DNA of 64,000 bases from Patescibacteria group bacterium (GCA_041649575.1 JBAZMW010000004.1:21687-85686); one strand, 5' to 3'; shown: positions 27,099 to 52,685, counted from the first letter of the stretch. The notes: generated by a model not told the origin, from the sequence alone. Numbers and translations: made by a program.

Positions 27099-28577
<1,479 letters not shown>

Positions 28578-28869
28578 AAAAAATTTGCAACTAGATTACG
28601 GCCAGTTGCCAACCGTATGAAACATTGCTTCGCTAGAAAGCGAAGATGCTTTGTTCAAAGAAAAATAACTTGGGCTTACGCTTTTTGTCACTTTTTAGTT
28701 GTCAAATTGCCTTTTTCCTCCGCTTTCAAGCGGAAAGAAAAAACAGAGGGATCCGATTTGGCGAACTCTCGTTTCAGGCGAGAATTCTGTCAGATACCAC
28801 TGTTTTCCCTCAAAATCTAAATTTTAGGAATTTTTTAAGAATGTTTTGTGCTTATTAGTCTGCCCTATT

Positions 28870-30638: not shown

Positions 30639-31064
30639 TTAGGCGCTGGGAGTGTCTGCTGAAGCGGCTTCTGCCGGCGCGGCTGTTTCGGCTTTCTCTT
30701 GAGCCTGCTTGGCGGCTTCGGCTTCGGCTTTCTTGGCGGCGTCGATAGTGGCTTTCTCTTGAGCCTTTTGAGCAGCTAGGGCCGCCTGTTTTTTCTTGCC
30801 GGGCTGCGACTTGGAGGCTCTGACTTTCTTGTCTTTGATAATCCCTTGGCTGACCAGTAGATTGTGAACCGTCGAGGTAGCTTGAGCTCCTTGCTTTAGC
30901 CAATACAAAATTCTGTCATTTTTTATCTGACTTACTTTGGTCTTAGGGTTATAAGAACCCAGGTTTTCTAAAAATTTACCCCAGGGATCACGGGTTTTTT
31001 CGGTGACAATCAGCCGATAAAGCGGCTGTTTTTTCTTGCCAACGCGAGATAGTCTGATTGATAA
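30639..31064 (-). CDS. rpsP: 30S ribosomal protein S16 with Ala/Lys-rich C-terminal extension
   Basis: MLSIRLSRVGKKKQPLYRLIV is the S16 signature. Confidence 0.85.
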   Translation of the reverse strand, partial: LSIRLSRVGKKKQPLYRLIVTEKTRDPWGKFLENLGSYNPKTKVSQIKNDRILYWLKQGAQATSTVHNLLVSQGIIKDKKVRASKSQPGKKKQAALAAQKAQEKATIDAAKKAEAEAAKQAQEKAETAAPAEAASADTPSA

Positions 31065-31288
31065 CATTATTTGTTGCTGATTAATTCTTAATTTCTGAGC
31101 ATTGAACGGTAAAGTTATGCTACTATATTTTACAAAAAAAGTCAATTAACCTTATTGGATTAATATATTTTATAACCAGCTTTTACAAAAAAAGGGCCAG
31201 CGATACGAGATCACTGTCCCTTGGAAAATCGCGGCCGAAGGCCAAGGATTCAATCCAATGGCCAAGCGGCCGAAAACCGAAGTCCAGA

Positions 31289-32251
31289 CTACCCGAGGCA
31301 GAACACCGACGCCGAATAGTCGTCGCTGGCATACGACAGATAGTCGGTGTAGTCGAAGTTCGCATAGGAATCGTAGGCGAGGAAGCGGAGCGAGTAGGAC
31401 TGCCACTGAAGAGCCGGGCAGCGCACTATTGGTGTCTTGGCGTCTCGGCAGAGCTCCTTGGCATAGGCCATGTAAGCCACTGCCGTGTCCAAGCCGCCGC
31501 CCAAGAGCATCCATTCGGGAATCTGGGCGGACAGTTCATGCCCGACGAAGGTCTCGCGACAAGCGTCGACGCTGTAACCGCCGAAAGGCAGAAGCGTGAC
31601 GCCGACAACCGGTTCTTTGGCCAAGGCGGCGAGCAGACACTCGTGCCGACTGCCGGCTACGATGCTGACCTCGCCGGCCAAGTCGGTTTCACGGTAGTTC
31701 GTGAACTTCCTGCCCTCGGCCTCGAAGGCTTCCTCATAAGCGCTCCTCACCCCGTCGACAAAAAGCTTCAAGGTGGCGCCGTAGCCACCTTTGTCCTCCG
31801 GCAGAATCGTGCCCGCTGGCAGAACAGTCGGCAGCCAAATGCCTTTGACGGCATTGGCCGTGCGAGGATCGCCCGCCAGCCTGGTGATAGTGGCCTTGGC
31901 TCGTACTTCGAATTCCTCGGCCGACGGCAAGCTGAGCGCCTCGGCTTTGACTCGCAGTCCGATGGCCAGATGCCGACGGACGCGCTCGAGGATCTCGCCG
32001 TAGTTGATCGAGGGTTGGTTGACGTAATACGCGCCAGCGTCGCAGAACGCAGCTTTGAGTCCGGGAAACGGAATGAAGCGGCTGTTCTTGTCGAACAGCT
32101 TACGGACGGTCTCCTTGATCTCCGCGGTCATTTCGTGACGCAGCAGCGCCTTGACGACATTGACGCCGCCAAGCTGGTTGCCAAGCGCCACCCAGTGGGT
32201 ATGTGGCAGGTCGTCCAGTGTTTCCAGTTGATCAATGTTAAAGTCCTTCAT
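31289..32251 (-). CDS. hypothetical protein D (320 aa) of GC-rich island
   Basis: RBS AAAGGAG; strong promoter TTGACA-17-TATAAT at 32363..32335; about 60% GC; no recognisable domain. Confidence 0.5.
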   Translation of the reverse strand: MKDFNIDQLETLDDLPHTHWVALGNQLGGVNVVKALLRHEMTAEIKETVRKLFDKNSRFIPFPGLKAAFCDAGAYYVNQPSINYGEILERVRRHLAIGLRVKAEALSLPSAEEFEVRAKATITRLAGDPRTANAVKGIWLPTVLPAGTILPEDKGGYGATLKLFVDGVRSAYEEAFEAEGRKFTNYRETDLAGEVSIVAGSRHECLLAALAKEPVVGVTLLPFGGYSVDACRETFVGHELSAQIPEWMLLGGGLDTAVAYMAYAKELCRDAKTPIVRCPALQWQSYSLRFLAYDSYANFDYTDYLSYASDDYSASVFCLG

Positions 32252-32334
32252 CTTGCGCTCCTTTCAGCCCATGGCCGAAATGGCTTTTCCCCTACCCGAG
32301 GATTGGGAACAGTCCTACGCAGGACCATCAGACT

Positions 32335-32363
32335 ATTATACTAAATAAAAAATAATCTGTCAA
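32335..32363 (-). promoter_or_regulatory. consensus sigma70 promoter (TTGACA-17-TATAAT) on minus strand
   Basis: Minus strand: TTGACAgattattttttatttagTATAAT in the AT-rich spacer upstream of gene D. Confidence 0.6.
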
Positions 32364-32520
32364 TACTAACAAATTATTTAAAGTTAAATAAAAACTTCCT
32401 CATCTGTCCGGCCAAGCTTCTTGAATGAGATAGAAACTATCTCAAACAAGAAGAAGAGAGAGTTTGGCCGGACGAATGAAGAAGCTTTAAAAGTATTCCT
32501 CAAAACTTGTAAAAAAGATT

Positions 32521-32569
32521 TGCAAGTTTAGTTGGAAGGAGAAGCTGACAAACCACATCAGCTTCTCCC
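32521..32569. repeat. island repeat, short copy 3
   Basis: TGCAAGTTTAGTTGGAAGGAGAAGCTGA-caaaccaca-TCAGCTTCTCC: 11-bp perfect hairpin plus the CCAGTTGGAAGGAG-like core. Confidence 0.6.
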
Positions 32570-32593
32570 AAAACCATCTACCGATCAAGGCCG

Positions 32594-33451
32594 CTAGGCC
32601 TTGGCGATGACGGCGCGAGTTGCCTCAACCGCCGCCACGACGTCGGCCAGCATCATGCGCTGACCGCGGGGACTGCCGGCGATGCCCGCGTGCCCGCCGG
32701 CCGCCTCGCCCCAAAGCCCCTGCACGATCTCTCGTGCCGAGACTCCGGGGATCGGGTCGGCGATAGACACTGTCACCGCACCGGTGACTGTGTTGAAGGC
32801 GACAACAGCTTTCGCCAAGTCGCCTTCCGGGTCGACGTACAGATGGCTGACAAACGTGTCCGCCACCCGCACTGCCACCCCGCCGCCAGCCTCGACGAAC
32901 GATTGCGCATTCAGCGCGACCTCCGCCGAGCGGAACGCCTCGCCCGCCGCGAGAAGTTCCGGGTCGTCAGCGCAAATGCGCTCAACGACCCTGACGGCCT
33001 CCATCACCTGCTCGGTGACTTCGGCCGCGCTGCCGTCGCGCGGGGGCAGGCAGCGGTGACCGTTGCTCCACGCCCAGAAAGCGTAGAGCCGGACGATGTC
33101 GGCTGGCTCGGCGCCGGCTTGGCCTAGCTTGTGCGGACCGTTGAGGTCCACAAAAGCTGCCAGGAGCCAGAATCCCGGCGTCTCGGGCTTGCGACCGAGA
33201 ACGGCCGCACAGCCGCCGACGGAATCGAGATCAAGGTGGGAAAGTCCCACCGCCTCGACTTCACCAGCCGCGCCGTTGTCGGCGAGGCAGGGGGCGGGGT
33301 TGCCCGCCCGCGGCCCGTGATGGGCCAGGGTTGCGACGGACCCGGCGACACACTCGTCGCCGAATTCCGCCTCAACCGAAGCGGTCAGGCCGAAGGGGGC
33401 GAGGACGGCGGCCAATGCGGCCGCATGGTTTGAAATAAAAAACTTCGTCAT
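32594..33451 (-). CDS. hypothetical protein C (285 aa), about 68% GC; faint DHH/DHHA1-like motifs (HLDLDSVGG ... AAGGHAGIAGSP)
   Basis: RBS AGGAGA 7 nt upstream of ATG; longest frame in the region; the motif resemblance is weak and unverified. Confidence 0.45.
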   Translation of the reverse strand: MTKFFISNHAAALAAVLAPFGLTASVEAEFGDECVAGSVATLAHHGPRAGNPAPCLADNGAAGEVEAVGLSHLDLDSVGGCAAVLGRKPETPGFWLLAAFVDLNGPHKLGQAGAEPADIVRLYAFWAWSNGHRCLPPRDGSAAEVTEQVMEAVRVVERICADDPELLAAGEAFRSAEVALNAQSFVEAGGGVAVRVADTFVSHLYVDPEGDLAKAVVAFNTVTGAVTVSIADPIPGVSAREIVQGLWGEAAGGHAGIAGSPRGQRMMLADVVAAVEATRAVIAKA

Positions 33452-33560
33452 GGCTTATCTCCTCTCTCGGAGTTTCAGCGCGCCACGCGCTGTGCCTCTC
33501 TCTGGTTTATCAAACCCTGCAAGCGAGAGACAAACTGGCAACTCCGCGCCGACAACCGGT

Positions 33561-33724
33561 GCAGAGTTTTTTCCTCAAGCCCCGCAAACTCACATTGTTT
33601 GCGAAGCCAGTTGGAAGGAGGAGACAGAAAAACCACTCTGACTCCTCCGGATAACCTTGTTTGCGTTTGTAACGAGGCCGCCGCCTCCGATTGTTTGACC
33701 TCTAACAATCGTAAAGGAGTGTTC
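33561..33724. repeat. island repeat, long copy 1 (164 nt, multi-hairpin)
   Basis: About 96% identical to 34422-34585; contains the TGCGAAGCCAGTTGGAAGGAGGAG core plus hairpins GGAGGAGACAGA/TCTGACTCCTCC, GCAAAC/GTTTGC and CGATTGTT/AACAATCG. Confidence 0.75.
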
Positions 33725-33762
33725 AGATTAAGGCCTAACACACAAGGTCTTTCTGGCGTGAC

Positions 33763-34333
33763 CTACTCGGACAGCGTGATGATCAGGTCTTTGACCTGAT
33801 CATCACGCTCAGACCAGACGGCGTTGGCTGGCTTCTGCCACCACCGCTTCTTCGGTGCGCCCCATTCGGCGGCGCATTCAGCGAAGTGGCTGCAATCCCC
33901 CCCCGAATCCGCGCAACAGAGCGCGTAATACGCGGCTAGCGCTCGGCGTTCGGCCGCGATACCAGAGGAGGAGCAGCAGAAGGCAGCGACGTCACCCGCT
34001 ACCTTTTTCGCCCGGGCGAGTTGCTCCGGAGAACTTACATTCTCCAGATAACCGCGGGCCCACTCTTCAACATCCGCGATGTCGCACATCGCGGCATGCT
34101 GCGCTACGATCCTTCTGGAAACGCGCACAGCCCACTTATTCGCTAGCTCCTTGGCTAGCGAATAAGAGGCGAGGCAAATGATTTCGTAGCTTGAAAATTT
34201 CCACGAAATCAGAGCATCCACGTCCTCCCTCCTAAACTCATTGCCCGCCCCATACCAGCGGCGGGCCACTTCTCTTTCGCATTTAGGAAAGCTCCTGAGA
34301 GCTTCCCTCAGGGTTCTGTACCTTTTCAAGTTC
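33763..34333 (-). CDS. hypothetical protein B (190 aa) of GC-rich island
   Basis: RBS GGAAAGGAGAGAGAG-ATG; the longer upstream frame is an artefact of running into repeat copy 2. Confidence 0.5.
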
Positions 34334-34421
34334 ATCTCTCTCTCCTTTCCGGATGTGGCCGAGATGTGGCCGGTCCCCTCGGAAACTACCATATATCCAA
34401 AACTCCGCACCGACCATCGGC

Positions 34422-34585
34422 GCAGAGTTTTTTCCTCAGGCCCCGCAAACTCACATTGTTTGCGAAGCCAGTTGGAAGGAGGAGACAGAAAAACCACTCT
34501 GACTCCTCCAAATAACCTTGTTTGCGTTTGTAATGAGGCCGCCGCCTCCGACTGTTTGACCTCTAACAATCGTAAAGGAGTGTTC
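34422..34585. repeat. island repeat, long copy 2
   Basis: Near-identical to 33561-33724. Confidence 0.75.
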
Positions 34586-34717
34586 TAATTAAGCTCTTGC
34601 GAGCCGGCCTAACACACAAGGCCGTTTGCCCATGATTTTACGCGGATGGCTTCTGCCCTTGACACGGGCCAAGGACTTTACCGCAACCGCCGAAGCGGGC
34701 TGTGAGGACGCCGAAGG

Positions 34718-35206
34718 TTACTTGGCTTTCGGCATCCCCGGCAGCTCCTGGAGCTGTCGGATGAAGGGGCCGACGATGTCGGCCACCTCCGAACGGAAGC
34801 ACGTTTGTGCTTCCATCGCGCACTCGCAGTCACCAACGGCGATTGCGAATGGAGGAAGGGGAAGTTCCACCGCCTCTTCCGGCAGTGAAACTTCCACCTG
34901 CAGAGGATATTCTCCCCCACAAATGTCTTCTGCCAATACCTGAATATGATCCAGGTAACCGCCCACGCTCACGTAGCGGCGAAACTCCGCCGCCACACTC
35001 GACACGCCCACCGAATATGAAACGGCGAACGTGCCCGACCGGGAGGATAGGCTAACCTCCATCCCGGCCTTCGTAAGAATGACGTACCCGCCATCATTAC
35101 GACCCACCTTCCACCCCGCTGCTACTGCAGCGGAGATGGGAATATTCCCTTCCCGCGGCCAGTTCGACCGCAGAAAAGACTTAACCCCTTCAGAATAGAA
35201 ACTCAT
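34718..35206 (-). CDS. hypothetical protein A (162 aa) of GC-rich island
   Basis: RBS AAAGGAGATAAGTT-ATG; no recognisable domain. Confidence 0.5.
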   Translation of the reverse strand: MSFYSEGVKSFLRSNWPREGNIPISAAVAAGWKVGRNDGGYVILTKAGMEVSLSSRSGTFAVSYSVGVSSVAAEFRRYVSVGGYLDHIQVLAEDICGGEYPLQVEVSLPEEAVELPLPPFAIAVGDCECAMEAQTCFRSEVADIVGPFIRQLQELPGMPKAK

Positions 35207-35404
35207 AACTTATCTCCTTTCACAGAGATCTCGGCCTGCCACAGGCCGTGTCCGCGAGGATCGACAATCCTCTTTTTTCGTCTCATGACGGCGGACAAAT
35301 TACTGCCAGTACCGCACAATGCGGCGCTGGTTTTTTCTATGCTTACCAGCCGCTGACCCAAGTCAGCTGCTAGGAATTTCCTCAGACTTCACGGACAACA
35401 GGCC

Positions 35405-35450
35405 TGCGAAGTCAGTTGGAAGGAGAAGCCGAGACTCGCCCGGCTTCTCC
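35405..35450. repeat. island repeat, short copy 4
   Basis: TGCGAAGTCAGTTGGAAGGAGAAGCCG-agactcgcc-CGGCTTCTCC. Confidence 0.6.
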
Positions 35451-35547
35451 AAAATCAATCATGAATAAATATTTAATTTATTTATCTCTTAATTTTTTAT
35501 TCAGTTGTCAAAATACTTCTTGTCTTAGCTTCTCACCATATGCTCCC

Positions 35548-35624
35548 GTAGCCCGAAGCGCCTTGTTTCTTATAACTCGGGATTGCCGCGGTCGCCCGCC
35601 TCTGGCGGACTCCCTCGCAATGAC
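35548..35624. mobile_element. intergenic copy of the MITE-like element (degenerate 5' end)
   Basis: CGGGATTGCCGCGGTCGCCCGCCTCTGGCGGACTCCCTCGCAATGACA matches the 3' halves of the cca and polA copies. Confidence 0.6.
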
Positions 35625-36349
35625 AGTTACGAAAGGCGTTTTACTAATCAAGACGGTTCTTCCAACCAACGGGTGGTTAATCTGTTGATTGGAAATGTCT
35701 GTCTCGAATAGATAGACATTTGGCAAAGGAGTTGCGATCCGAGAGGCTGACGCTAACAAGCATGCGGCGCCAGACCTCGAGCCGGACAGCTATCCAACAA
35801 CCGTCACTCTAACGGTGGTTTGTTGCCCTATGAGTGATATTTAGCGAGGCGAGGATTTCTCTCTTCGATAGTCCTGGCTTCGCCAAACATTTTAAGGTGC
35901 TTGAGTTTAAAGTGCTGTTCCCAACTCTCTCTTTGGGAAGGCCGGGTTCAGAAGTGACAAGCTCTTCCGAGGCCCGGCTCTCCCGCCCGATCTAGAAAGT
36001 TTCAAAAAACTCTCAACCGGGCGGAGAGAGCTTCGAGGTGCTTCCTTTTTCTATTGGTCGCCGCCCTCTCTCCTTGGCGGCTTCCAAATCCAGTAAGGAA
36101 GCAATTGACTTTTTATTTAATGTTCTCTGGTCGGCTATCTTTTTCCTGTTTTCAGCTTACAAACCCATTATATCATATATAACAAATATTGTCAAGCATA
36201 TATGACTAAAAATTTAGAATTTATTATTATTTTCCTAAATTTATTAAAATATATTATCTAATTTATAATACTATTTTGTCACAAAAATTTGACATTTAAA
36301 TATTATGGGTGTATAATGAAAGTATCTATTTAATAAATCAACAAAGAAT

Positions 36350-37138
36350 ATGTACAAACAGTCATTAACTCAGGCCGGGCTGACCGAAGAAATGGCCCAA
36401 ATTTATGAGGTTTTGCTGAAAAACGGGCCACAAAATGCTGGAAAATTAGCCAAAAAAACCGGCTTAAAACGCGGTTTGGTTTACAAAACACTGGATCGCC
36501 TGTTAGAAAAAGGGTTGCTAGAAAAAAACGAGGCCGACAAAAAGGTGTCCCTATTTTCCGCCAATCATCCGCTAAAATTGCAAGAAATAGTAGAAACCAA
36601 GCAGCAAAGGGCAAAAAACGCCGCTTTGGCCCTGGATGGTGTTTTGCCAGCCCTGGTTTCCGACTACAACCTGCTAAGCGGCAAGCCAGAAGTTCTCTAT
36701 TTCGAAGGCGAGGAGGGTCTAAAAAAAATTGCTTTCGATTCCCTGTCGGCCAAAACGGAAATACTGCAATATATAGACAACGAGGCAGCCAATAAATATT
36801 GGCCAAATCTTAATGAGGAATATGTAAAAAAAAGAAAGGGCCTGGGCATTAAAAAACGCATGATTACCATTGACAGCGAGTTTATCAAAAAAAATAAAGC
36901 CAAGTACGATCGCAGTATTACCGATATTCATCTGATAGACGGAGAGCGCTACCCCTTTGCCACCTCCATGCAGATTTATGACAATAAAGTAAGCCATGTC
37001 ACTTTGAGCCAGAATAAAAAAATCGGCTTTCTCATCGAAGATGCCGAGATTGCTGGAATGCATCGGACTATTTTTGAGTATATGTGGGAAAAAACCAGTC
37101 CACTTTTTGAGCCTCAAACCGCCGCGGCCAATGATTGA
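36350..37138 (+). CDS. TrmB-family transcriptional regulator
   Basis: N-terminal wHTH (AGLTEEMAQIYEVLLKNGPQNAGKLAKKTGLKRGLVYKTLDRLLEKGLL) and a TrmB-type C-terminal domain. Confidence 0.65.
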   Translation: MYKQSLTQAGLTEEMAQIYEVLLKNGPQNAGKLAKKTGLKRGLVYKTLDRLLEKGLLEKNEADKKVSLFSANHPLKLQEIVETKQQRAKNAALALDGVLPALVSDYNLLSGKPEVLYFEGEEGLKKIAFDSLSAKTEILQYIDNEAANKYWPNLNEEYVKKRKGLGIKKRMITIDSEFIKKNKAKYDRSITDIHLIDGERYPFATSMQIYDNKVSHVTLSQNKKIGFLIEDAEIAGMHRTIFEYMWEKTSPLFEPQTAAAND

Positions 37139-39414
37139 GGCTGGGCGGCCAAATCGTTTCTCTCAATCACAACAAATTTTTCGCCGGCAATTTCCGTCTC
37201 GCCCACTTCCTTGAAACCGAACCGACTTTTATAAAAATCCAGCAGTTCCGGCCGGCGACCGTAAACAACCGCCTCAATAATATTTTCCCGGGCCGCCGAG
37301 TCAATGACTTCTTTGATCATGGCATTGCCGATTTTAAAACCCTGGGCTTCGGGACGAACATTAAAGGAGGCGGCATAGAGCCGGTTTTGGCCGCGCGGCT
37401 CCAGACGCAGAAAACAAATAATTTTTCTGTCATATCTAAGAATGGTAAAAACCGATTGAGACTTGGCAGAACCTTCTTCTGGGGAAACCGCCTCTTCAAA
37501 ATCACTAGAAACTTCTCTAAGCAGCTCTTCGGGGTAATCCTCTCTGTTGGCCAAAAAAATTCTAATCATCTCCTCTTTTTCCGAGGGCAAAAGATCGGCT
37601 GGCTGCCTGGTCTCCATACTAACCTTGGCCGCCTCTTTGAAATCAATCTCTTCTCCGGCTTCCAATAAAGCCCTGAAAGAAGCGGCGAACAGCAAAACGT
37701 CCGCTTTAATACTATCCATCTGGTCCAGAATTTCTGATGCCTCAAAACCGCGAGCTGCCTTCAGACAAAAATCATTTAAAACGTCCCTACCTCGAGACAA
37801 CAGGCTTGAGCGCACCTTATCTAAAACATCACCAGGAATATTTCTGCCAAACTCTTTGGCCACCAGCTCTATTGTCTCATCGGCTGTCTCGATGATTTCG
37901 ACATACTTGGCAAAAATTTTTTCCGCCACGGCTGGCGGCAACCTTTCGCCTAACTCCAGAATCTTGTTACCCATTTCTTGACCATATTCACAGGAAAGAA
38001 AAGTCTTAAATCCAGTCAAACCAAACCGAGAGGCAAACCGCCTAACTGGCTCCATTTTAACAGAGGACATGGTCTTAATGAATTGCAAAAAATGAAACTG
38101 CTCCCTCAGGGACAGGTTTGATAAATCAATATTTAGCTCTTGGCCTATTTTTTCACGCATGGATTTTTTTGACATCCACTTAAAATCCACCAATGCCTCT
38201 TCCCGCTGCCTACTCTCATCTTTGGAGCGACTGGCGGGTATAAAAACATCGGTGACAGACAATTTCCTGGAAAAAAAAGACTCTAACGACCTAAAAAGTT
38301 GGTTACGCTCGTACAGTAAGGCTGAGTCAGGACTAAAAAATACTTCTGTTTCGCCATTGGCTATCGCTAAATCAATTAAGTGCTGGGGAGGACGAATTTT
38401 ATCTTCAATAGAATCTATCTCTTGATTTAAACGGCAAATTTCATCAAAGTCTGACTCATCAGCGACATAAAGACCATGACGAGATTCCCAAGCGTAAATT
38501 CTGCCACTTAAAATAAAAGGTCGACGATTATTGTGCCTTGACTCTAGTAGTTCACCTTTTTCAAAATGGTTATATATTTCCTGAGCTCGCATTTTTAAAA
38601 AATAACTGCCCTCGTTTTTTTCTATGGCTTCCTTTAAAACCATTATAACTTTAGAGCCAGCTTTCTCGGAAAAAGAATAGTCCTGAGAAACCTCACATAG
38701 CCTCCTAATAAACTCTAAAAAAACAGCGGTACGAGAAAAATTCTTACTATTGGAAAAATCTAAATTATCAACTAAAACCTGATCATAAAGTTCGCTAAAA
38801 AAAGAATAGGCGTAGTTTAAACCATGCAGAACCTCGCTCTCCAAATCCGCGTCAGTGTCTGGCCGACAAATTAAATCCACTAAGCCTTCTATAAAAATGT
38901 CTGGGCGTATTGTCTGGGGATCCTGAAAAAGATACTGAAAAAATTTTCTACTAGCACTCGGGCTCTGGTGGTGAGTTTTAATAACAGCTTTAAAGGTCTT
39001 GTCAGCTATAGATTCATCTTTGGAGCCGTCCCTTTTAAAATCTCCGTGAAGCTGAAGCGCGCAATTCAAGTCCATCGCCAGAAGATCTTGCTCTGCCTCT
39101 GGCCTATCCTCGATTAAGGATAAACCCCTACTAATTATCGCCTCTACTATCTCTGGTGGCAATAAGTGTCTCTGACTATTTTGCTCTAATTCTGGCAGTA
39201 GCTTCTTAAAAAAATAGTCAAATGGCAGGGAATTAATTAAAACCAGTGCCTGATTTTTTTTAGTCTGATCTACAGGGGTTGTTTCTTGTCTATCCGCTAT
39301 AGATAGCAACAAACCCCTGCCCACCAAATAGTCAAACAAATTTTCTTCAAATTTTGACTCTTTTTGATCAGAACTTGCTTCAGCTTTATTTGCTATTTTT
39401 TTTTCGCCTTCCAT
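37114..39414 (-). CDS. large hypothetical protein (766 aa) with C-terminal GNAT acetyltransferase domain
   Basis: C-terminal about 150 aa show GNAT motifs (IIEAVVYG ... FYKSRFGFKEVGE); lies 4 bp downstream of smc on the same strand. Confidence 0.55.
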   Translation of the reverse strand: MEGEKKIANKAEASSDQKESKFEENLFDYLVGRGLLLSIADRQETTPVDQTKKNQALVLINSLPFDYFFKKLLPELEQNSQRHLLPPEIVEAIISRGLSLIEDRPEAEQDLLAMDLNCALQLHGDFKRDGSKDESIADKTFKAVIKTHHQSPSASRKFFQYLFQDPQTIRPDIFIEGLVDLICRPDTDADLESEVLHGLNYAYSFFSELYDQVLVDNLDFSNSKNFSRTAVFLEFIRRLCEVSQDYSFSEKAGSKVIMVLKEAIEKNEGSYFLKMRAQEIYNHFEKGELLESRHNNRRPFILSGRIYAWESRHGLYVADESDFDEICRLNQEIDSIEDKIRPPQHLIDLAIANGETEVFFSPDSALLYERNQLFRSLESFFSRKLSVTDVFIPASRSKDESRQREEALVDFKWMSKKSMREKIGQELNIDLSNLSLREQFHFLQFIKTMSSVKMEPVRRFASRFGLTGFKTFLSCEYGQEMGNKILELGERLPPAVAEKIFAKYVEIIETADETIELVAKEFGRNIPGDVLDKVRSSLLSRGRDVLNDFCLKAARGFEASEILDQMDSIKADVLLFAASFRALLEAGEEIDFKEAAKVSMETRQPADLLPSEKEEMIRIFLANREDYPEELLREVSSDFEEAVSPEEGSAKSQSVFTILRYDRKIICFLRLEPRGQNRLYAASFNVRPEAQGFKIGNAMIKEVIDSAARENIIEAVVYGRRPELLDFYKSRFGFKEVGETEIAGEKFVVIERNDLAAQPQSLAAAV

Positions 39415-39417
39415 ATT

Positions 39418-42180
39418 TTATTTCCCTATTTTTTCCGCCTCGGCTAATTTGAGCGACAAGAGCCGAGAAACACCGTCGCCTTGCATAGTGACACCATAAA
39501 GCACATTGGCGCGCGACATAATGGCCCGATTGTGGGTGATGACGATAAATTGAGTTTTATGGGCCAGCTCCTCGATGATATCGCTGAACTTGGCGGAGTT
39601 GTTTTCGTCCAGAGCCGCGTCTACCTCGTCAAAAAGAATGAAAGGCGAGGGATTGTTGGCAATGATGGCGCAAATTAAGGCCAGGGCGGTCATGGTTTTT
39701 TCCCCGCCGGAAAGCACGCTGACGCTTTTAATTTTTTTGCCTGGCGGACAGGCTTCGATATCAATGCCTATATTGGCCAAGAAAGATTTATCCTCGGGAC
39801 AAACCTCTTTTTTTTCTGGGGTAGCTTCTTTTAGCTCCTCTGCCGCCGTATTTTCTGGCAACGGAACAGAATTTTTCTGGGCGATTTCTTCGCGGATTAT
39901 TTCGGCTTCGGTTTGTTCTTCCTGTTTCTGCGTCAAAACCAATTTGGCGCCGCCGCCATCGAACAACTTTTTGAAATAACGCGAAAAATCCTGATTGATT
40001 CTTTTAAATTCTTCTTCGAATTGCTTTTTAATTAATTTGTCCAACTCCACCACCACCTTCTCCAAGTCTTTGATGGCTTTTTTCAGGTCGTCGCTTTGCT
40101 GACTAAGAAAATCATAACGAGTTTTGACTTCCTCATATTCTTTTTCCACCTCCGGATCGGTGCCGCCAATCAGTTCCAACTGTTTTTTGAGCCGGCTGAT
40201 TTTCAAAGACAGTTCGCCAATGTTGATATTTTTCAAACTACTGTCGACTTTGGGCCGATAGTCCTGGCCCAAATCTTGCCGCATGGCGGAAAAAAGGTCT
40301 TCTTTTTTGGTTTCTACCTTGGCCAATTCCACCCGCACCTCATTAAAGGCCAAATTGACTTTATTTAATTCCAATTGCAATTGGTGCATCTTTTCCTGCA
40401 GAATAAAAACTTCTTGTTTTTTGCTTTCCTCGGCTTCATTAAAGCTATCGATTTGCTCTTTAACTTCCGCCAATGATTTTTCGGTTTTGGCCAACTGGCT
40501 TTCTAATTCCTTTTTCTCTGCCGCCAGCCCTTTGGCCAGCTCGTCCTGATCTTTGGGGGCTAGCTGGTTTTTGGCCAGTTGTTCGGCGGTTTTATTCAGC
40601 TCGGACTCCAATTCTCCTACTTTATTCCGGAGAGAATTCTTTTGGGAAAGCGCCACTTCGACTTTAATTTTTATCTCGTTAATTTCGTTGACCAAGAGGT
40701 CTTTATCTTTCAAAAAACCTGACAGTTGATTTTGCAGAGCGGCAATCTCTTGTGACTGCTCCTGACGGTTGGCGCTGGAGAGACGCTGATAAAAAACTTC
40801 CATCTCCGCGAACAGATTATCGGCTTCGCGTTTCAAGTCTTCCAAAACTTCCAGGGTGGCAGTCCGCCTCAATTTATTAGTGAAATCACGCTGCAACAGA
40901 TAGATGCGATTGACGGTTTGGCGGATTTCTTTTTCGGAAATACCCAATTCGCTCTGAAATTCTTTTTGTAATTTCAATAAATTATCCTCCAACTCCCTGA
41001 ATTCGCTCAAAACCATTTCTTGCCGCGATCGCTTGCCGTTTAAATCCTCTTGCCAGCGCTTAATTTGTTTTTCTTGATCAGCGATCTGAACGCCAAAATT
41101 TTTAAGCTGCGCGTTTAATTCGTCCTGACGCCTTTCGAGCCAAGACAAGTCCTGCCGACCGACTTTCAGATATTCCACATCCAATTTGCCTTTGACTTCC
41201 GCCAGTGACTGGAGCAAAGAGTTTCTTAAAGCCAGCTTTTGATCGTAATCGTTTTGCAATTTATTGAACTCTTCTGCCCGTCCGCGCTGACGACCGATTT
41301 CTTCCAATTGCCTGTGTAGTAAGTCTATTTCCCGCTCCAGCCGCATGCCGCTTTTTTCTTTTTCGGTAAAAGAGCGGGCCAGCTCCTGATAACTAGCGTC
41401 TAAATCAAGCCAGAGGTGGCCGTAATAGTTCATTTGCCATTGCCGCAATTCTTTTTCTATCTCTTTGCGTTTTTGCAAACGATTGACCTGGCGCGTCAGT
41501 GATTTCAGGTGCGGCTCCAGCTCAACCAACAACCCCTTGACCTGTTCGATGTTTTCCCTGGATTTTTTTAGCTTACCAACCGAACGGTCGCGCTTGAGCT
41601 GAAACTGCTTGACACCGGTCGCCTCATCAAAAAATTCTTTTCTTTCCTGGGTCGAATAGTTAACCAAACGATCAACCATGCCTTGGCCGATGATACTATA
41701 GGTATTTTGGCCAAAGTTGGCTTTGGCCAAAAATATAATAATATCAAACAGCCGCACTTCATTTTTATTGAGTAAATATTGAGAGGAAGCGTCACGATAA
41801 ATTTTTCTGGTAATCGCCACTTCGGCATAGTCCACCGGAGCCGATTTGTCTTCATTGTTTAAATGCAGAGAAACTTCGGCCAAGCTCATTTGGGATCTGT
41901 TGGAGGAACCGGAAAAAATCACGTCGGTCGATTTTTTGCCACGCAGCAGCTTCAGCGACTGTTCGCCCAAAACCCAGCGCACGGCGTCAACCACATTGGA
42001 CTTGCCCGAGCCATTAGGGCCGACGATGGCTGTGACGCCGCAAATGCCTCGCGGCAACTGTCCGGTCCGCGACGAAAGGTGTGGGGCGATTTGGCAGCCC
42101 TGGCCGGGCGTGGGAAATTCCAACACCGTCTTTTGGGCAAAAGATTTGAATCCTTGGAGTTCGATACGCTGAAGATACAT
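39418..42180 (-). CDS. smc: chromosome segregation protein SMC
   Basis: N-terminal Walker A GPNGSGKSN, long coiled coils, hinge, C-terminal LSGGEKTMTALALICA/D-loop; about 25-aa GC-rich in-frame insert before the Walker A. Confidence 0.85.
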   Translation of the reverse strand: MYLQRIELQGFKSFAQKTVLEFPTPGQGCQIAPHLSSRTGQLPRGICGVTAIVGPNGSGKSNVVDAVRWVLGEQSLKLLRGKKSTDVIFSGSSNRSQMSLAEVSLHLNNEDKSAPVDYAEVAITRKIYRDASSQYLLNKNEVRLFDIIIFLAKANFGQNTYSIIGQGMVDRLVNYSTQERKEFFDEATGVKQFQLKRDRSVGKLKKSRENIEQVKGLLVELEPHLKSLTRQVNRLQKRKEIEKELRQWQMNYYGHLWLDLDASYQELARSFTEKEKSGMRLEREIDLLHRQLEEIGRQRGRAEEFNKLQNDYDQKLALRNSLLQSLAEVKGKLDVEYLKVGRQDLSWLERRQDELNAQLKNFGVQIADQEKQIKRWQEDLNGKRSRQEMVLSEFRELEDNLLKLQKEFQSELGISEKEIRQTVNRIYLLQRDFTNKLRRTATLEVLEDLKREADNLFAEMEVFYQRLSSANRQEQSQEIAALQNQLSGFLKDKDLLVNEINEIKIKVEVALSQKNSLRNKVGELESELNKTAEQLAKNQLAPKDQDELAKGLAAEKKELESQLAKTEKSLAEVKEQIDSFNEAEESKKQEVFILQEKMHQLQLELNKVNLAFNEVRVELAKVETKKEDLFSAMRQDLGQDYRPKVDSSLKNINIGELSLKISRLKKQLELIGGTDPEVEKEYEEVKTRYDFLSQQSDDLKKAIKDLEKVVVELDKLIKKQFEEEFKRINQDFSRYFKKLFDGGGAKLVLTQKQEEQTEAEIIREEIAQKNSVPLPENTAAEELKEATPEKKEVCPEDKSFLANIGIDIEACPPGKKIKSVSVLSGGEKTMTALALICAIIANNPSPFILFDEVDAALDENNSAKFSDIIEELAHKTQFIVITHNRAIMSRANVLYGVTMQGDGVSRLLSLKLAEAEKIGK

Positions 42181-43401: not shown

Positions 43402-46302
43402 ATGACAAACAAAAAACAGAGGCTGGTTATCGTTGACAGCAATGCTCTGATTCATCGCGCTTTCCATGCCTTGCCACCACTCTCCAACAAAGAAGGCCAA
43501 TTGACCAATGCGGTCTATGGCTTCACTATGATTTTAATCAAAGCCATCAAAGACTTAAAACCAGATTATTTGGCTGCCTGCTTTGATTTAAAAGGCAAAA
43601 CTTTCCGCCACGAGGCCTATGATCAATACAAGGCCACCAGGATAAAACAGCCCGACGAACTCTACCAGCAAATTCCCATCGTCAAAGAGGTTTTAGAGGC
43701 TTTCAAAATTCCTGTTTTCGAAAAAGAGGGGCTGGAAGCCGACGATTTAATCGGCACCATCGCTCACTTAAAATCTGTTGACCGTCCGGACATCGAAACC
43801 ATTATCGTCACCGGCGACCAAGACACTCTGCAGCTTGTCGACTATAATACCAAGGTGCTAACGCCGCATAAAGGCATGAGCGAAACCATCCTTTATGGCG
43901 AGGATGAGGTAAAAGGAAAATTCGGCGGCCTGGAGCCCAAACAACTAATTGATTATAAAGGGCTACGTGGCGACGCCTCTGATAACATTCCAGGAGTCAG
44001 GGGTATTGGTGAAAAAGGAGCCATTGAACTTTTGCGAGAGTTTGGCAGCGTGGAGAATGTTTACAAAAACATTAAATCCAAAAAAATTAAAGAACGAACG
44101 CGCGAGCTGCTTTTGGCCAACAAAGACACGGCGCTATTATCGAAAAGGCTGGCGACCATAGTTTTGGACGCTCCGATAAAATTCGAATTGGAAAACTGCC
44201 GCTTTAGCGGCTTTGATAAAAATGCCGTGGTAGATATTTTTCAAAAATTAAACTTCAAACGACTACTGGCGCAACTAGCCACACTTTTAAAAAATGACCC
44301 TGCGACAACAATAGGGCAAGGAAATTTATTTTCCCAGATGTCATTCCGAGGAGTCCAGTCATTACACCGACTAGACGACGTTGGCCTGCCTGCCGGCAAG
44401 GCAGGGATCCCGTCTAATATTGAAAAAGATGGGATTGCCGCGGTCGCTCCGCTCCCTCGCAATGACAATAAAAAAATCGGCCGGCAAAATTATCAGTTGG
44501 TTGATGAGGAAAAAACCGCCAAAAAATTCTTAACTGAACTGAAAAGGCAGCGCGAGTTTTGTTTTGATACCGAAACCACCGGACTGGATCCTTTTCAGAA
44601 CAAACTACTGGGAATCAGTTTTTGTTGGCAGGAAGGCGAGGCTAGTTATTTGACAGTCAGGATTATTAAAAACAATCTTAAAGAGCTAAAAAAAATATTT
44701 GAGAACAAAAATGTAAAAAAAATCGGCCATAATCTAAAATATGATATTGAGATTTTGGAAAAAAGCGGCCTAAAGACCAATAGGCTTCACTTCGACACCA
44801 TGATCGCTTCCTATGTTTTGAACCCCGGCGGCCGCCAGCATAATTTAGACACGCTGGCTTTCGTTGAACTGGGATACCAAATGCAACCGATAGAGGAGTT
44901 GATCGGCAAGGGACGAGGCCAAATATCCATGGCCGAAGTGCCAATAGACAAAGTTTGTTGGTATTCTTGCGAAGATGCCGATCTGACTTTTAGACTGTAC
45001 CAGAAACTGAAGCAAGAGCTGGGTGAGCAAGGCACGGAGGGCCTGTTGGAAAACCTGGAAATGCCGCTGGTGGAGGTTTTGGCGACAATAGAAACTAACG
45101 GCGTTAAAATTAATGACAAAATTTTAAAAAAATTAAGTGATGATTTCGCCAAAAAAATTTCTGCCATAGAAAAAAATACCTGGAAGCTAGTTGGAGAAAA
45201 ATTCAATTTGGCCTCGCCGTTACAATTAAAACAAATACTGTTTAAAAAACTAAAAATTGACGGGGCTGGGCTGGCTAAAACAAAAACTGGCATTTCCACC
45301 GGCGCGGCAGAACTGGAAAAACTGGCTGCTTGGTTCAGAGAAAACAAGGCGGACGAAAAAAAACTCAAGGTTATAAATTTACTTCTTGAATTTCGCGAGT
45401 TATCAAAATTGAAATCAACTTATCTGGACGCCTTGCCGGCTCTAATAAATAAGGTTGACGGCCGGGTCCATACCAGCTTTAACCAAACCGTGACAGCCAC
45501 CGGTCGCCTATCGTCCAGCGAGCCAAACCTGCAAAATATTCCTATTCGCACAGAAACTGGCGGACCAATAAGACGCGCTTTCATCGCCGAGCGGGGCTAC
45601 AAAATAATGAAAGCCGACTATTCGCAAATCGAATTGCGTATTGTCGCCTCACTGGCCAATGACAAAAAAATGTTAAAAATTTTTGAGAGCGGCGGCGACA
45701 TTCATACCAGCACCGCGGCTTTTATCCACGGCATCAAACCCGAAGAGGTGACCAAAGAAATCAGGCGTACCGCCAAGGAAGTTAATTTTGGTGTCCTCTA
45801 TGGCATGGGTGCCTGGGGGCTCTCGCAACGCACCGGCATTTCCAACACGGAAGCGCAAAAATTTATCAGCAAATACTTTTCTACTTTTAAAGAAGTGAAA
45901 AAATGGCTGGATGAAACCATTGAGCTTGCCAAAGAACGCGGCTACGTGGAAACGCTTTACGGCCGCCGGCGCTACTTACCGGAAATCAATTCGGGCGTCA
46001 GCCAGGTACGCAGCGGCGCCGAACGCATGGCGGTCAACATGCCCATTCAGGGCACAGCCGCCGACTTAATAAAACTAGCGATGATCAAAATTCATAAAAA
46101 TTTGCCCCATATCAGCCCTAAAGCCAAAATAATCCTGCAGGTGCATGACGAGTTGGTTTTTGAGGTGCCGGAAAAAGACATTAAAAAAGTGGCAAAGTTT
46201 GTCAGGGAAAAAATGAGCTCGGTCATTAGGTTGCGCGCTCCGATTGAAGTAGAGGTCTCCGCCGGCGACAATTGGGGTGAGACCCGGGAAATAAATTTAT
46301 GA
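43402..46302 (+). CDS. polA: DNA polymerase I
   Basis: 5'-3' exo (LVIVDSNALIHRAFHA), 3'-5' exo and pol motifs A/B/C (DYSQIELRI, KEVNFGVLYG, QVHDELVFE); in-frame repeat insertion in the exo-exo linker. Confidence 0.9.
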   Translation: MTNKKQRLVIVDSNALIHRAFHALPPLSNKEGQLTNAVYGFTMILIKAIKDLKPDYLAACFDLKGKTFRHEAYDQYKATRIKQPDELYQQIPIVKEVLEAFKIPVFEKEGLEADDLIGTIAHLKSVDRPDIETIIVTGDQDTLQLVDYNTKVLTPHKGMSETILYGEDEVKGKFGGLEPKQLIDYKGLRGDASDNIPGVRGIGEKGAIELLREFGSVENVYKNIKSKKIKERTRELLLANKDTALLSKRLATIVLDAPIKFELENCRFSGFDKNAVVDIFQKLNFKRLLAQLATLLKNDPATTIGQGNLFSQMSFRGVQSLHRLDDVGLPAGKAGIPSNIEKDGIAAVAPLPRNDNKKIGRQNYQLVDEEKTAKKFLTELKRQREFCFDTETTGLDPFQNKLLGISFCWQEGEASYLTVRIIKNNLKELKKIFENKNVKKIGHNLKYDIEILEKSGLKTNRLHFDTMIASYVLNPGGRQHNLDTLAFVELGYQMQPIEELIGKGRGQISMAEVPIDKVCWYSCEDADLTFRLYQKLKQELGEQGTEGLLENLEMPLVEVLATIETNGVKINDKILKKLSDDFAKKISAIEKNTWKLVGEKFNLASPLQLKQILFKKLKIDGAGLAKTKTGISTGAAELEKLAAWFRENKADEKKLKVINLLLEFRELSKLKSTYLDALPALINKVDGRVHTSFNQTVTATGRLSSSEPNLQNIPIRTETGGPIRRAFIAERGYKIMKADYSQIELRIVASLANDKKMLKIFESGGDIHTSTAAFIHGIKPEEVTKEIRRTAKEVNFGVLYGMGAWGLSQRTGISNTEAQKFISKYFSTFKEVKKWLDETIELAKERGYVETLYGRRRYLPEINSGVSQVRSGAERMAVNMPIQGTAADLIKLAMIKIHKNLPHISPKAKIILQVHDELVFEVPEKDIKKVAKFVREKMSSVIRLRAPIEVEVSAGDNWGETREINL
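44340..44466 (+). mobile_element. MITE-like element inserted in frame in polA linker (effective about 126 bp)
   Basis: TIRs GTCATTCCGAGG ... CCCTCGCAATGACA; internal hairpin CCTGCCT/AGGCAGG; 3' half GGGATTGCCGCGGTCGCTCCGCTCCCTCGCAATGACA shared with the cca and intergenic copies. Confidence 0.65.
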
Positions 46303-49995: not shown

Positions 49996-50026
49996 AAATT
50001 AATTTTAGTCCGGCCTGGAAAAATTT

Positions 50027-50299
50027 TTATTTTACCTGGTCGAGGCCGCCTTTAGAAAATGGGTTGCAACGCAGCACCCGCCCCAAAGCCTTTAACCCCC
50101 CCTTAATAATTCCATATTTTTCTACCGCCTGATAGGCATACTCTGAACAGGTCGGCTGAAACTTACAGTAACCGCCCGGGTAAAAAATCCGTGGCCAGCC
50201 GTAGTCAAAAGAAAGGGTTTTTTGGTAGAGTCTGATTAATCTTAAAGCAAAAAAACGAAGAGAATAAGCCAGGTTGCGAATTGTTAAATTAATCGGCAT
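50027..50299 (-). CDS. yidD: membrane protein insertion efficiency factor YidD
   Basis: Conserved Cys pattern (PTCSEYA ... RCNPF). Confidence 0.8.
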
Positions 50300-50622
50300 T
50301 TTTTAAAAACAGTTAGGAGCTCCGATTCTAAAAACTGTTGTTTTTGACCCAAGGCCAAAGGCGTAGCGCTAATAATTATATCAATATTTTGACTAAATTT
50401 AAATAAATTTTTTTTAACAATCTCCCTTAATCGTCTTTTGATTAAATTTCTTTGCGAGGCCTTTTTAGAGACTTTATTAGAAACGACTACCGCAAAACGA
50501 CAGAAATCTAAACCATTAGGCTTATAATAAATTGCCAAAAATCCACTGAAAGCCCTCTTACCGCTTCTAAAAATTTTAAGAAAATCGTTACGTTTGGTTA
50601 GACGATATTTTTTGGCCAACAT
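50284..50622 (-). CDS. rnpA: ribonuclease P protein component
   Basis: [16 protein letters not shown] ... [25 protein letters not shown] is the RnpA signature. Confidence 0.85.
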
Positions 50623-50663
50623 AATAATAAAAAATTAGGTAATTATGGCCAAAACCGTGCCGA

Positions 50664-50792
50664 CTAGTTTGACCGACCTCGATTTTTTCTTCTTTTTAGG
50701 ACTTTTCTGCCATTTTTAGTCTGCATCCGATGACGAAAGCCGTGCTTTTTGACTCTTTTTCTCTTTTTTGGTTGGTAGGTTCTCTTGGGCAT
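50664..50792 (-). CDS. rpmH: 50S ribosomal protein L34
   Basis: Manual translation [42 protein letters not shown]; not in the ORF track (under 60 aa). Confidence 0.85.
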
Positions 50793-50799
50793 AAAACTT

Positions 50800-52396: not shown

Positions 52397-52685
52397 TAAT
52401 TTGGGTAAAAATTCTTTATAAAAAGTAACTAACTTGGTGATAGTATTGTTTTAAAAAGTTAATAAACTTTAGATAAGTTAAAATAAAACTGGAAAAATTT
52501 TTTAAAACCATTTAATAAAATTCAAGTCACTAGTTTTAAACAGTTGGTTGTAATAATTATTCAGTGTTTATACCTAAAAAATTTATTTTAAATATTAAAA
52601 AAGGTATAGTTTCATAAATTTTTAATAACTTTCCACTTTTCCCCTGTCATTAATATAATTATTAATAATTATTTTATTAAACTAT

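Follow-up and report, generated by a model that had tools for sequence, protein, structure and literature searches.

A single unit of a palindromic REP-type repeat in non-coding DNA of a Patescibacteria genome

Introduction

The closest described class of unit to the repeat analysed here is the superfamily of CGTC/TGTC-tagged REPs, whose members include RPE-4 and RPE-6 of Rickettsia and dRS3 of Neisseria (Di Nocera, De Gregorio & Rocco 2013, BMC Genomics 14:522; PMC3733652). Its units have an unpaired CGTC (or TGTC/CCTC) tag, a stem that starts with A-T and then T-A, and a 3-nt tail with the consensus CCA. In the families CGTC-1 to CGTC-4 the stem has 8-9 bp and the loop 4-5 nt; compound loops are described there for some GTAG families only. 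The units are dispersed, from tens to thousands per genome. Heterodimers with the tags outside (HH) predominate, with spacers of 20-100 nt, and singletons occur too. In-frame intragenic copies are found especially in replication and repair genes, including that of DNA polymerase I, and the superfamily has no associated transposase (PMC3733652).

In the REPIN/RAYT systems, two inverted hairpin units and their spacer form a putatively mobile doublet, and singletons are seen as immobile remnants (Bertels & Rainey 2011, PMC3116915; Nunvar 2010, PMC2817692). What is recognised is thought to be a single-stranded DNA hairpin with a short unpaired guide at its foot (PMC3116915, PMC2817692). The subclasses of Y1 transposases have been tied only to REPs of the GT[AG]G type or to atypical ones (Quentin et al. 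2018, PMC6006769).

In the searchable literature we found no description of REPs for Patescibacteria, and searches with the sequence strings GTCATTGCGAG and CTCGCAATGAC returned unrelated primer matches only. Here we analyse 64,000 nucleotides (hereafter the window) of a contig from a Patescibacteria group bacterium (GCA_041649575.1 JBAZMW010000004.1:21687-85686). A first-pass annotation of this DNA had described 35548-35624 as a degenerate intergenic copy, carrying a terminal inverted repeat (TIR), of an element also present in cca and polA.

Results

A complete hairpin unit at 35579-35625

The 49-mer quoted by the first-pass annotation occurs exactly once in the window, at 35578-35626. Within it lies a single complete unit of a palindromic REP-type repeat, confirmed by exact sequence blocks, a strict scan and a covariance model. 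The unit and its parts are the following.

35579-35625, minus strand: intergenic REP unit, singleton
35622-35625, minus strand: unpaired tag TGTC (GACA on the plus strand), read directly from the sequence
35582-35586: foot stem arm ATTGC, pairs with 35617-35621 in the folds
35617-35621: foot stem arm GCAAT, pairs with 35582-35586 in the folds
35594-35610: copy-specific inner hairpin, core CCGCC / TCT / GGCGG, from the folds
35579-35581: tail CCC (GGG on the plus strand), from the sequence
Flanks of the 47-nt unit: ...TTATAACT on the left, AGTTACGAAAGG on the right

Read on the minus strand, the sequence is TGTC-ATTGC-GAGGGA-GTCCGCC-AGA-GGCGGGC-GACCGCG-GCAAT-CCC. It starts with the unpaired tag and the first arm of the 5-bp foot, continues through an internal loop and a GC-rich inner hairpin, and closes with the second foot arm and a tail of 3 nt. 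The folded unit totals 46 nt, with a 5-bp foot, an internal loop, an inner stem of 5-7 bp (5 bp for the best perfect stem) and a 3-nt loop; its folding energy on the minus strand is -22.8 kcal/mol. The inner hairpin stands where the unit in polA has a shorter GCGGAGC centre.

The unit shares exact blocks with the repeats in cca and polA

Nucleotide similarity to the copies in cca and polA had been named as the test of this element, and it is clear. BLAST aligns the intergenic and polA copies in an exact block of 17 nt (35579-35595 = 44431-44447) and a second, colinear exact block of 16 nt (35610-35625 = 44452-44467), separated by a centre of 14 nt in the intergenic unit and 4 nt in the polA unit. 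The right unit of polA thus has 33 of its 36 positions in common with the intergenic unit. The 11-mer CTCGCAATGAC is common to all three loci, with exact matches at 8100, 35614 and 44456. At no more than one mismatch it has five matches in the window against 0.84 expected, and none of 100 shuffles reaches five.

We scanned the whole 64 kb with a strict pattern (head GTCAT[TC][CG]CGAG ... tail G[CG][AG]AT[CT][CT]C) and found exactly five clean units. We also searched the window, with filters off, using a covariance model trained solely on 14 units from other phyla. The five units, with the scores of this model, are as follows.

8015-8054, plus strand: cca left unit (17.5 bits, E = 0.03)
8057-8110, minus strand: cca right unit (20.5 bits, E = 0.005)
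35579-35624, minus strand: intergenic unit (34.6 bits, E = 1.9e-6)
44340-44411, plus strand: polA left unit
44431-44466, minus strand: polA right unit (34.6 bits, E = 1.9e-6, a tie with the intergenic unit)

Beyond the scored units the covariance model found nothing significant in the window. A loose head-and-tail regular expression over the 64 kb gave background-level matches and no further copies, and a generic scan for hairpins (GTCAT plus a perfect 6-nt arm) gave AT-rich chance matches only. A candidate extra copy at 36056-36069, which matches the core at 12 of 14 positions, was dropped because the covariance model gives it no support. A further 19.5 kb of the source contig contains no additional unit, which leaves five units at three loci in ~84 kb. 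The BLAST blocks, the enrichment of the motif and the five-unit scan together show that the first-pass annotation had noticed a real copy.

In cca and polA the units form in-frame dimers

Both genic copies are inverted dimers with the tags pointing outwards.

8014-8111: tag-outward inverted dimer in cca, in frame in the ORF 7733-9331 (plus strand), with ~34 aa added
44339-44467: tag-outward inverted dimer in polA, in frame in the ORF 43402-46302 (plus strand)

The cca dimer has 98 nt, with a spacer of 2 nt and the tags CGTC and TGTC; that of polA has 129 nt, with a spacer of 19 nt and TGTC at both ends, and lies in the linker between the 5'-3' and 3'-5' exonuclease domains. The feet of the left units, ATCCC/GGGAT in cca and ATTCC/GGGAT in polA, are compensatory variants of ATTGC/GCAAT.

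Comparison with orthologues shows that, relative to them, both copies are insertions. The nearest relatives of the source genome, in the neighbourhood of Buchananbacteria, have ~70-79% protein identity with it. The nearest cca orthologues (79% identity, 498 aa) lack the insert and read FGVFKFVPAKA-TNIEPIDIALPRTE at this place, where cca of the window has ~34 residues more; comparison with the PDB places ~42 extra residues between aligned blocks. Other cca relatives have different inserts in the same loop (VIPAEA..GIS; VIPSEV...PRND; SFKTPLNLPLERGE). Similarly, polA relatives at ~70% identity are without the insert of the window, and in several the same linker holds repeat-like peptides of other sequence (VIPAKAGIQ, VILSQSEGS, LSSRAKRG..PAQAGIP, GIATS..PPRNDS). 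The odd extra peptides of the two proteins, VIPSEARGEVWGSRGIATSSGSVTRNRSPRNDI in cca and SFRGV...GIPSNIEKDGIAAVAPLPRNDN in polA, are thereby explained as the read-through of a DNA hairpin repeat and not as a protein domain. In another genome, a Buchananbacteria MAG, a cca-type dimer with the identical junction GGGGATCCCGCGGGATTGCCACG is located between genes. This dimer, the intergenic copy in ORF-less DNA and the orthologues of cca and polA without inserts bear out the first-pass suggestion that the element can land between genes.

A hairpin family across many phyla

We searched for foreign units with the pattern GGGATTGCC-N(5-35)-CTCGCAATGAC, taking one genome per species. The pattern matches at least 120 genome loci in at least 13 phylum-level groups, and is present in 83 stretches of IMG/VR viral contigs. 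Among the matches listed, the hosts within Patescibacteria are Buchananbacteria, Paceibacterota, Parcubacteria, Komeilibacteria and Saccharibacteria. The other hosts among the matches listed are Bacteroidota, Chloroflexota/Dehalococcoidia, Bacillota, Planctomycetota, delta-, beta- and gamma-Proteobacteria, Nitrospirota, Elusimicrobiota, Aminicenantes, Zixibacteria, Ratteibacteria, Cyanobacteria and Melainabacteria. Whole units that are nearly identical are found in a Patescibacteria MAG and in a goat-gut Ruminococcus MAG, and the 11 nt of tag plus foot are identical across that lineage (GTCATTGCGAG...GGCAATCCC).

The matches listed hold 154 units with 125 distinct central cores. Among them, an inverted partner lies within 130 nt of 91 of the 145 units that are off locus edges, so that 63% of the units are in dimers and 37% are singletons; the spacers between partner units, again among the matches listed, range from 2 to 76 nt. 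In 144 foreign units of the matches listed, the outer neighbour of GTC is A (69%) or G (22%), giving the tag TGTC or CGTC. Only 32% of the 154 units listed lie within a stop-to-stop ORF of at least 150 aa, and such ORFs make up 85% of those loci.

What is conserved in the family is base pairing. The foot helix is paired in 100% of the 122 distinct units among the matches listed, with some CG swaps on both sides, and columns 4-5 are AU and UA in 122/122; this conservation is partly by construction because the collection pattern fixed both feet. The pattern left the inner stems free, and the pair counts were made on the model-fitted alignment. In the matches listed, 112 distinct cores have a length of 10 nt or more; half of these hold a perfect stem of 4 bp or longer, compared with 16.5% after shuffling (maximum 23%), and the stem-bearing cores among these matches have 40 different arms. 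In the 150 model-aligned matches among those listed, pairing holds in 98.2% of cells (79.8% shuffled) and 191 cells have double-sided changes (50.5 +/- 5.5 shuffled). The covariation score reaches 0.233, and slid controls do not exceed 0.039. One-sided changes number ~4 in the alignment, which means that G-U pairs are almost absent.

The motif GCGNAGC has a strand preference, with 19 occurrences on the tag-first strand and one on the opposite strand. The sequence d(GCGAAGC), of the form GCGNAGC, is a very stable DNA mini-hairpin motif.

The compensatory changes of the inner stems and the scarcity of G-U pairs identify a hairpin repeat at the level of DNA and not a protein module. The conserved feature is Watson-Crick pairing on DNA, not a peptide, and the members of the family, found in many phyla, lie mostly between genes. 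The first-pass annotation had drawn the same distinction between nucleotide repeat and protein module from the intergenic copy, and it is supported.

The intergenic unit lies in a probable structured leader

Gene calls of the identical public contig are empty from 35207 to 36349, the only long ORF-less stretch of the neighbourhood, in agreement with the non-coding location given by the first-pass annotation. The stretch lies between a hypothetical gene (34718-35206, minus strand) and a gene for a TrmB-family regulator (36350-37138, plus strand), and the short ORFs that overlap the unit have no Pfam match. Its main features are listed below.

35207-36160, minus strand: ORF-less, hairpin-rich host segment (no gene called, fold statistics)
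36195 to 36167, minus strand: consensus sigma-70-type promoter, TTGACA-17-TATAAT with TG (12/12 positions; predicted function)
36289 to 36317, plus strand: second consensus promoter, back to back with the first (12/12 positions)
35558-35577: left arm of a local host hairpin, GCGCCTTGTTTCTTATAACT, with the unit at the tip (MFE structures of both strands)
35625-35639: right arm of the local host hairpin, AGTTACGAAAGGCGT (MFE structures of both strands)

The segment 35207-36160 is a probable leader of the minus-strand genes from 34718-35206 onward. This leader of ~950 nt is a chain of hairpins, with MFE z-scores of -9.1 (minus strand) and -12.1 (plus strand); the minus strand folds better by 16 kcal/mol. 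The unit sits ~535-580 nt downstream of the minus-strand promoter, and is therefore probably transcribed, tag-first, as a stable hairpin inside the long structured leader. The first-pass annotation had put the copy at the edge of a GC-rich island; it actually lies ~540 nt inside the non-coding leader of the GC-rich segment. A terminator was considered at this place and rejected: the transcribed strand has no U-tract after the hairpin, and the site was left unflagged by a scan. Rfam at the gathering score gives nothing in the window apart from 16S rRNA and tRNAs, and at E <= 5 it gives only noise in 35100-36450.

The pairing of the two flanks suggests, from the predicted structures, that the unit was inserted into the loop of a pre-existing hairpin. 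Flank pairing of this sort is found in 1.9% of 54 foreign singletons among the matches listed. We found no sign of a preference for palindromic targets, since flank complementarity is not enriched in 144 foreign units among the matches listed. The local stem around the intergenic unit is therefore specific to its locus.

The gene order in relatives is trmD-KH-rpsP-radical SAM-smc-x-polA, and in the window the region between rpsP and smc has the GC-rich genes, the leader, TrmB and a 766-aa GNAT protein. The ORFs of the GC-rich island have no match in Pfam, PHROGs or NCBIfam. Two other Patescibacteria contigs encode homologues of its 285-aa protein, again next to a divergent TrmB and to a long, very structured ORF-less gap. 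The ORF-less gaps beside TrmB in relatives have z-scores of -6 to -17 and cannot be aligned with one another. One of them holds canonical CGTC-type palindromes, TGTC-ATCCTCGGG-CTCGA-CCCGGGGAT-CCC and the double-footed TGTCATCCCCGGGCTTGACCCGGGGATGACA. The ORF-less gaps beside TrmB appear to collect CGTC-type repeats.

Contigs with the same proteins show 100% identity with the window, and the next relatives have ~70% protein identity and another gene order, so there is no orthologous intergenic region for comparison. A search of metagenome contigs for filled and empty alleles (0-60-nt insert between the flanks) gave 0 matches. An insertion at the intergenic site is therefore a putative one.

The GC-skew minimum and dnaA-dnaN are at 51-54 kb, which places the origin to the right of all copies. 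The tag-first (minus) strand of the singleton then has leading-strand sequence and is the lagging-strand template. IS200/IS605-type enzymes act on this strand, an observation that is consistent with spread as single-stranded DNA and that, coming from a single singleton, has no statistical weight.

Alternative readings of the intergenic copy

The most serious alternative is that the unit survives from a tag-outward dimer, with a left unit eroded beyond recognition and a right unit that is immobile. In P. fluorescens, REP singletons derive for the most part from dimers (PMC3733652), and dimers are also the commoner form among the foreign units listed. Within the 59 nt on the left, TCCCGTAGCCCGAAGC is similar to TCCCGAGCGAAGC in the left unit of cca (shuffle p = 0.018). 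Its distance from the right unit, ~38 nt, is close to the 42 nt in cca. Within 35548-35578 this resemblance is gapped and covers 13 letters (TCCCG-AG--CGAAGC), and its p-value is marginal because two comparisons were made; the other, with the polA left unit, shows no likeness (p = 0.97). The covariance model is blank there even at E <= 10 with filters off, the left side has no tag, foot or tail, and more than a third of the foreign units listed are likewise singletons with no partner. We consider a decayed dimer possible, but rather unlikely. The intergenic copy is one intact unit, a singleton of an element that is an inverted dimer in cca and polA, and not the degenerate full-length copy of the first-pass annotation. 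Of the interval 35548-35624 proposed there, the part from 35579 onward, extended to 35625, is the element, and the left 31 nt (35548-35578) seem to be local sequence with no demonstrable element origin.

An RNA selected for its own sake is less probable still, and we regard it as unlikely. The hairpin would be a functional part of the long structured leader, or of a non-coding RNA, transcribed from the minus-strand promoter; it might stabilise the RNA, or be a site of processing or of protein binding, and its likeness to the repeat family would stem from exaptation. The background given in the survey of CGTC repeats mentions REPs that serve as RNA stabilisers or terminators in other bacteria (PMC3733652). 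The perfect promoter at 36195 to 36167 points into the region, and the unit caps a longer local helix, but the hairpin is not followed by a U-tract on the strand that would be transcribed. The 956-nt segment folds far better than its shuffles, and better on the minus strand; however, the fold of the 131-nt neighbourhood alone is no better than that of its shuffles, with non-significant z-scores of -0.4 and -1.6. Gaps beside TrmB in relatives are structured likewise, yet they do not align with one another, and no Rfam family matches. The scarcity of G-U pairs across the family argues for a constraint on DNA.

It is improbable that the elements are MITEs, that is, deletion derivatives of an insertion sequence whose DDE transposase would recognise 12-nt terminal inverted repeats (TGTCATTSCGAG), with an intergenic copy truncated to one end. 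The dimers of cca and polA do end in inverted repeats of 11-12 nt and their lengths fall in the size range of MITEs, some of which are known in frame, e.g., in Coxiella (PMC5896051). However, each of these ends is a complete hairpin unit, found alone in over a third of the cases listed, and the spacer between units is variable among the matches listed. No transposase family is found among the Pfam matches of the genes over ~84 kb of the source contig. Direct repeats flank none of the three copies: the flanks read AATAAC and ATTATT in cca, CCAGAT and AATAAA in polA, and TAACTC and AGTTAC at the intergenic unit. The check for a target-site duplication, proposed with the first-pass annotation, is thus negative throughout; the MITE model is not supported, and REP/REPIN is the better model. 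The conserved end that had been called a TIR is present, as the tag plus foot of a REP-type hairpin and not as the terminus of a MITE.

The ORF-less stretch could also have arisen by decay of a gene in which the element stood in frame, which we find very improbable. The 90-aa ORF 35416-35688 (plus strand) and the 83-aa ORF 35508-35759 (minus strand) do cross the unit, but neither has a Pfam match. The public contig has no gene called there, tblastn of proteins from related clusters against 31000-39500 finds nothing in 35207-36349, the region forms one hairpin after another downstream of a promoter, and the frame read through in cca and polA meets a TGA stop at the end of the unit.

Finally, chance resemblance to the family has in its favour only the shortness of the element, and is made negligible by the two exact blocks shared with polA, the E-value from an independently trained covariance model and a motif count that no shuffle reaches.

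Discussion

We read 35579-35625 as one intact REP-type unit of the CGTC/TGTC class in non-coding DNA, and the copies in cca and polA as tag-outward, in-frame dimers of such units. Membership of the repeat family is shown, and the reading as a whole, with the mode of spread and the origin proposed below, is quite probable. Annotators should avoid calling ORFs across 35579-35625. By analogy with REP/RAYT and IS200/IS605, the units would have spread as single-stranded DNA hairpins, which an enzyme supplied in trans either copied or cut and pasted; the available ~84 kb encode no such mobilising enzyme. The singleton would either have inserted alone into a hairpin loop already in place or be what is left of a dimer with a decayed left unit, and would be transcribed passively as a stable hairpin within the leader.

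The singleton itself is ordinary, and only the recurrence of an identical tag plus foot across phyla could grow into more. One conjecture, which we hold to be doubtful, is that the hairpin lineage, found in at least 13 phylum-level groups and in viral contigs, is kept up by a very widespread activity or by phage-borne transfer, and not by a lineage-specific transposase. The activity could be that of a housekeeping enzyme of single-stranded DNA; if so, the small gene sets of CPR would sharply narrow the candidates. The lineage persists in CPR genomes of ~1 Mb with no transposase nearby. The class has no known mobilising enzyme, so these minimal genomes could be a useful place to seek one.

Comparison with known systems

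Like bacterial MITEs (PMC10969869; Coxiella QMITEs, PMC5896051), the elements of the window are small and non-autonomous, have inverted ends and are able to add peptides to proteins. They differ in the lack of a target-site duplication, in ends that are autonomous hairpin units and in having no known parental insertion sequence. Only the two dimers have inverted ends of 11-12 nt, the intergenic copy has a single such end, and the available sequence contains no IS.

The Rickettsia palindromic elements (RPE), as the CGTC survey presents them, are also palindromic repeats found in frame in surface loops and linkers of housekeeping proteins, and between genes (PMC3733652). RPE-1 differs in being longer (~100-150 nt) and, according to the same account, specific to Rickettsia (PMC3733652). 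The copy described here is the intergenic, single-unit form, in a Patescibacteria (Buchananbacteria-like) MAG.

The inverted hairpin doublet with an unpaired guide at its foot recalls the REPIN/RAYT systems. Here, the guide is TGTC, with neither GTAG nor GTGG adjoining the stem, and the ~84 kb of the source contig have no Y1 (HUH) transposase. With a different guide and no RAYT in sight, these are not classical GTAG REPs or REPINs. They also depart from classical REPINs, which are extragenic, in that essential genes carry two of the three loci, in frame.

The resemblance is closest to the CGTC superfamily. As in that class, the units have an unpaired CGTC/TGTC tag, directly followed by a stem that starts with A-T and then T-A (ATTGC/GCAAT), and a short tail of 3 nt. 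They form HH heterodimers (cca, polA) with variable spacers, and occur as singletons too; they are mostly intergenic, with in-frame copies that include one in DNA polymerase I, and no transposase is associated with them in ~84 kb of the source contig. Copy number is low over the ~84 kb covered, with five units at three loci; counts in that class are tens to thousands per genome. The tail is CCC or CTC here and CCA there, CCC being one base off. The units, of 28-55 nt, have a foot of only 5 bp, then an internal loop that leads to an inner hairpin of variable, self-complementary sequence, in place of a stem of 8-9 bp with a loop of 4-5 nt. The host range, with Patescibacteria, Chloroflexota, Bacillota, Cyanobacteria, Planctomycetota and others, extends well beyond the five phyla of PMC3733652. 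Given the differences in stem and loop dimensions and in the CCC tail, we file the repeat as a new member, arguably a new family, of the CGTC class. A CGTC/TGTC-tagged REP variant with a compound loop is now documented in Patescibacteria.

Recurrent in-frame insertions in cca and polA

Two sites in these proteins carry differing repeat-encoded peptides across relatives, one in a surface loop of cca and the other in a linker between domains of polA:

Residues ~92-126 (window 8006-8110): insert-bearing surface loop of cca
Residues ~310-356: insert-bearing inter-domain linker of polA

The peptides include VIPAEAGIS, VIPAKAGIQ and LSSRAKRG..PAQAGIP, along with the unrelated SFKTPLNLPLERGE type, in a comparison based on the relatives' proteins P0245, P0248, P0271, P0274, P0278, P0008, P0013-15, P0020 and P0032. 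The cca loop and the polA linker are recurrent hot spots of in-frame insertions. As a separate observation, three polA homologues (P0018, P0040 and P0074) are 1279-1387 aa long and have the intein/homing-endonuclease Pfam domains PF14528 and PF14890.

A structured segment within a possibly transferable gene trio

The segment without ORFs that holds the intergenic REP unit (window 35207-36162) is filled by a chain of strong hairpins. Its minimum free energy is far below that of shuffled sequences (minus strand z = -9.1, plus strand z = -12.1); of the two, the minus strand has the better fold, by 16 kcal/mol. Two back-to-back putative promoters, both perfect matches, lie beside it:

36195->36167, minus strand: putative promoter TTGACA-17-TATAAT, with the segment directly downstream
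36289->36317, plus strand: putative promoter of the TrmB gene

Rfam returned no match for the segment, which may form a long structured leader or else constitute an undescribed RNA.

The neighbouring GC-rich island shows further structure. A direct repeat of 193 nt (33540-33732 and 34401-34593, 94% identical) occupies the non-coding spacers upstream of two of its minus-strand genes (ORFs 32594-33451 and 33763-34269), and these spacers fold far better than their shuffles (z about -4 to -5). The first ORF encodes a protein with 488 homologues in Patescibacteria:

32594-33451, minus strand: 285-aa protein

The coding DNA is 69% GC and is also unusually structured (z = -9.7). The protein had no match in Pfam, PHROG or NCBIfam. 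AlphaFold modelled it with very high confidence (pLDDT 97.9), and the top PDB fold matches of this model are DHH/DHHA1 phosphoesterases (Foldseek probability 0.99), including the GdpP catalytic domain, NrnA and TM1595.

We compared the region with loci of other genomes (window 31146-39414; L123, L124, L125 and L127). The interval between rpsP and smc contains a radical SAM/SPASM gene in relatives, and in the window the GC-rich genes, the putative leader, TrmB and a 766-aa GNAT protein take its place. Other Patescibacteria also carry the trio formed by a large protein, TrmB and, across a long structured gap, the DHH-like protein, placed at unrelated positions in their genomes; the trio therefore behaves as a transferable module.

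Probable replication origin and RNA genes

The window also encodes:

51005-52396: dnaA
52686-53810: dnaN
6080-6153: tRNA-Ile, anticodon TAT (UAU), called by ARAGORN
27101-28583, minus strand: 16S rRNA gene, standing alone

Because the cumulative GC skew reaches its minimum at dnaA and dnaN (~50000-54000), the AT-rich region at 50-53 kb is probably the site of the replication origin. The tRNA-Ile(UAU) is uncommon among bacteria, where AUA is usually read by a CAU tRNA carrying lysidine. A tRNA-Ile(GAT) gene lies ~1.5 kb downstream of the 16S rRNA gene; 23S and 5S rRNA had no match within the whole 64 kb.

REP-type repeats in other genomes

The right unit of polA (44431-44466) differs by one base from a unit in a Ruminococcus MAG from goat ileum (L077 6869-6904, GGGATTGCCGCGGTCGCTCTGCTCCCTCGCAATGAC), and variants that share its GGTCGC...CTCCCTCGC frame are present in Dehalococcoidaceae, in a MAG of a gammaproteobacterium and in one viral contig (L043, L054, L133). 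Stretches of putative viral contigs that contain the REP unit number 83 (IMG/VR loci L132-L211, either phage genomes or host fragments), with 91 units, 23 of which have a partner.

In a relative, an AT-rich repeat of 36 nt, CCCTAAATACTAAATACTAA..., is present three times in the gap adjacent to TrmB (L125 6308-6343, 6463-6498 and 7083-7118). The same gap holds canonical palindromes of the CGTC type, with a 9-bp stem and a 5-nt loop, as well as a 'double-footed' perfect palindrome (6870-6900 and 7158-7191).
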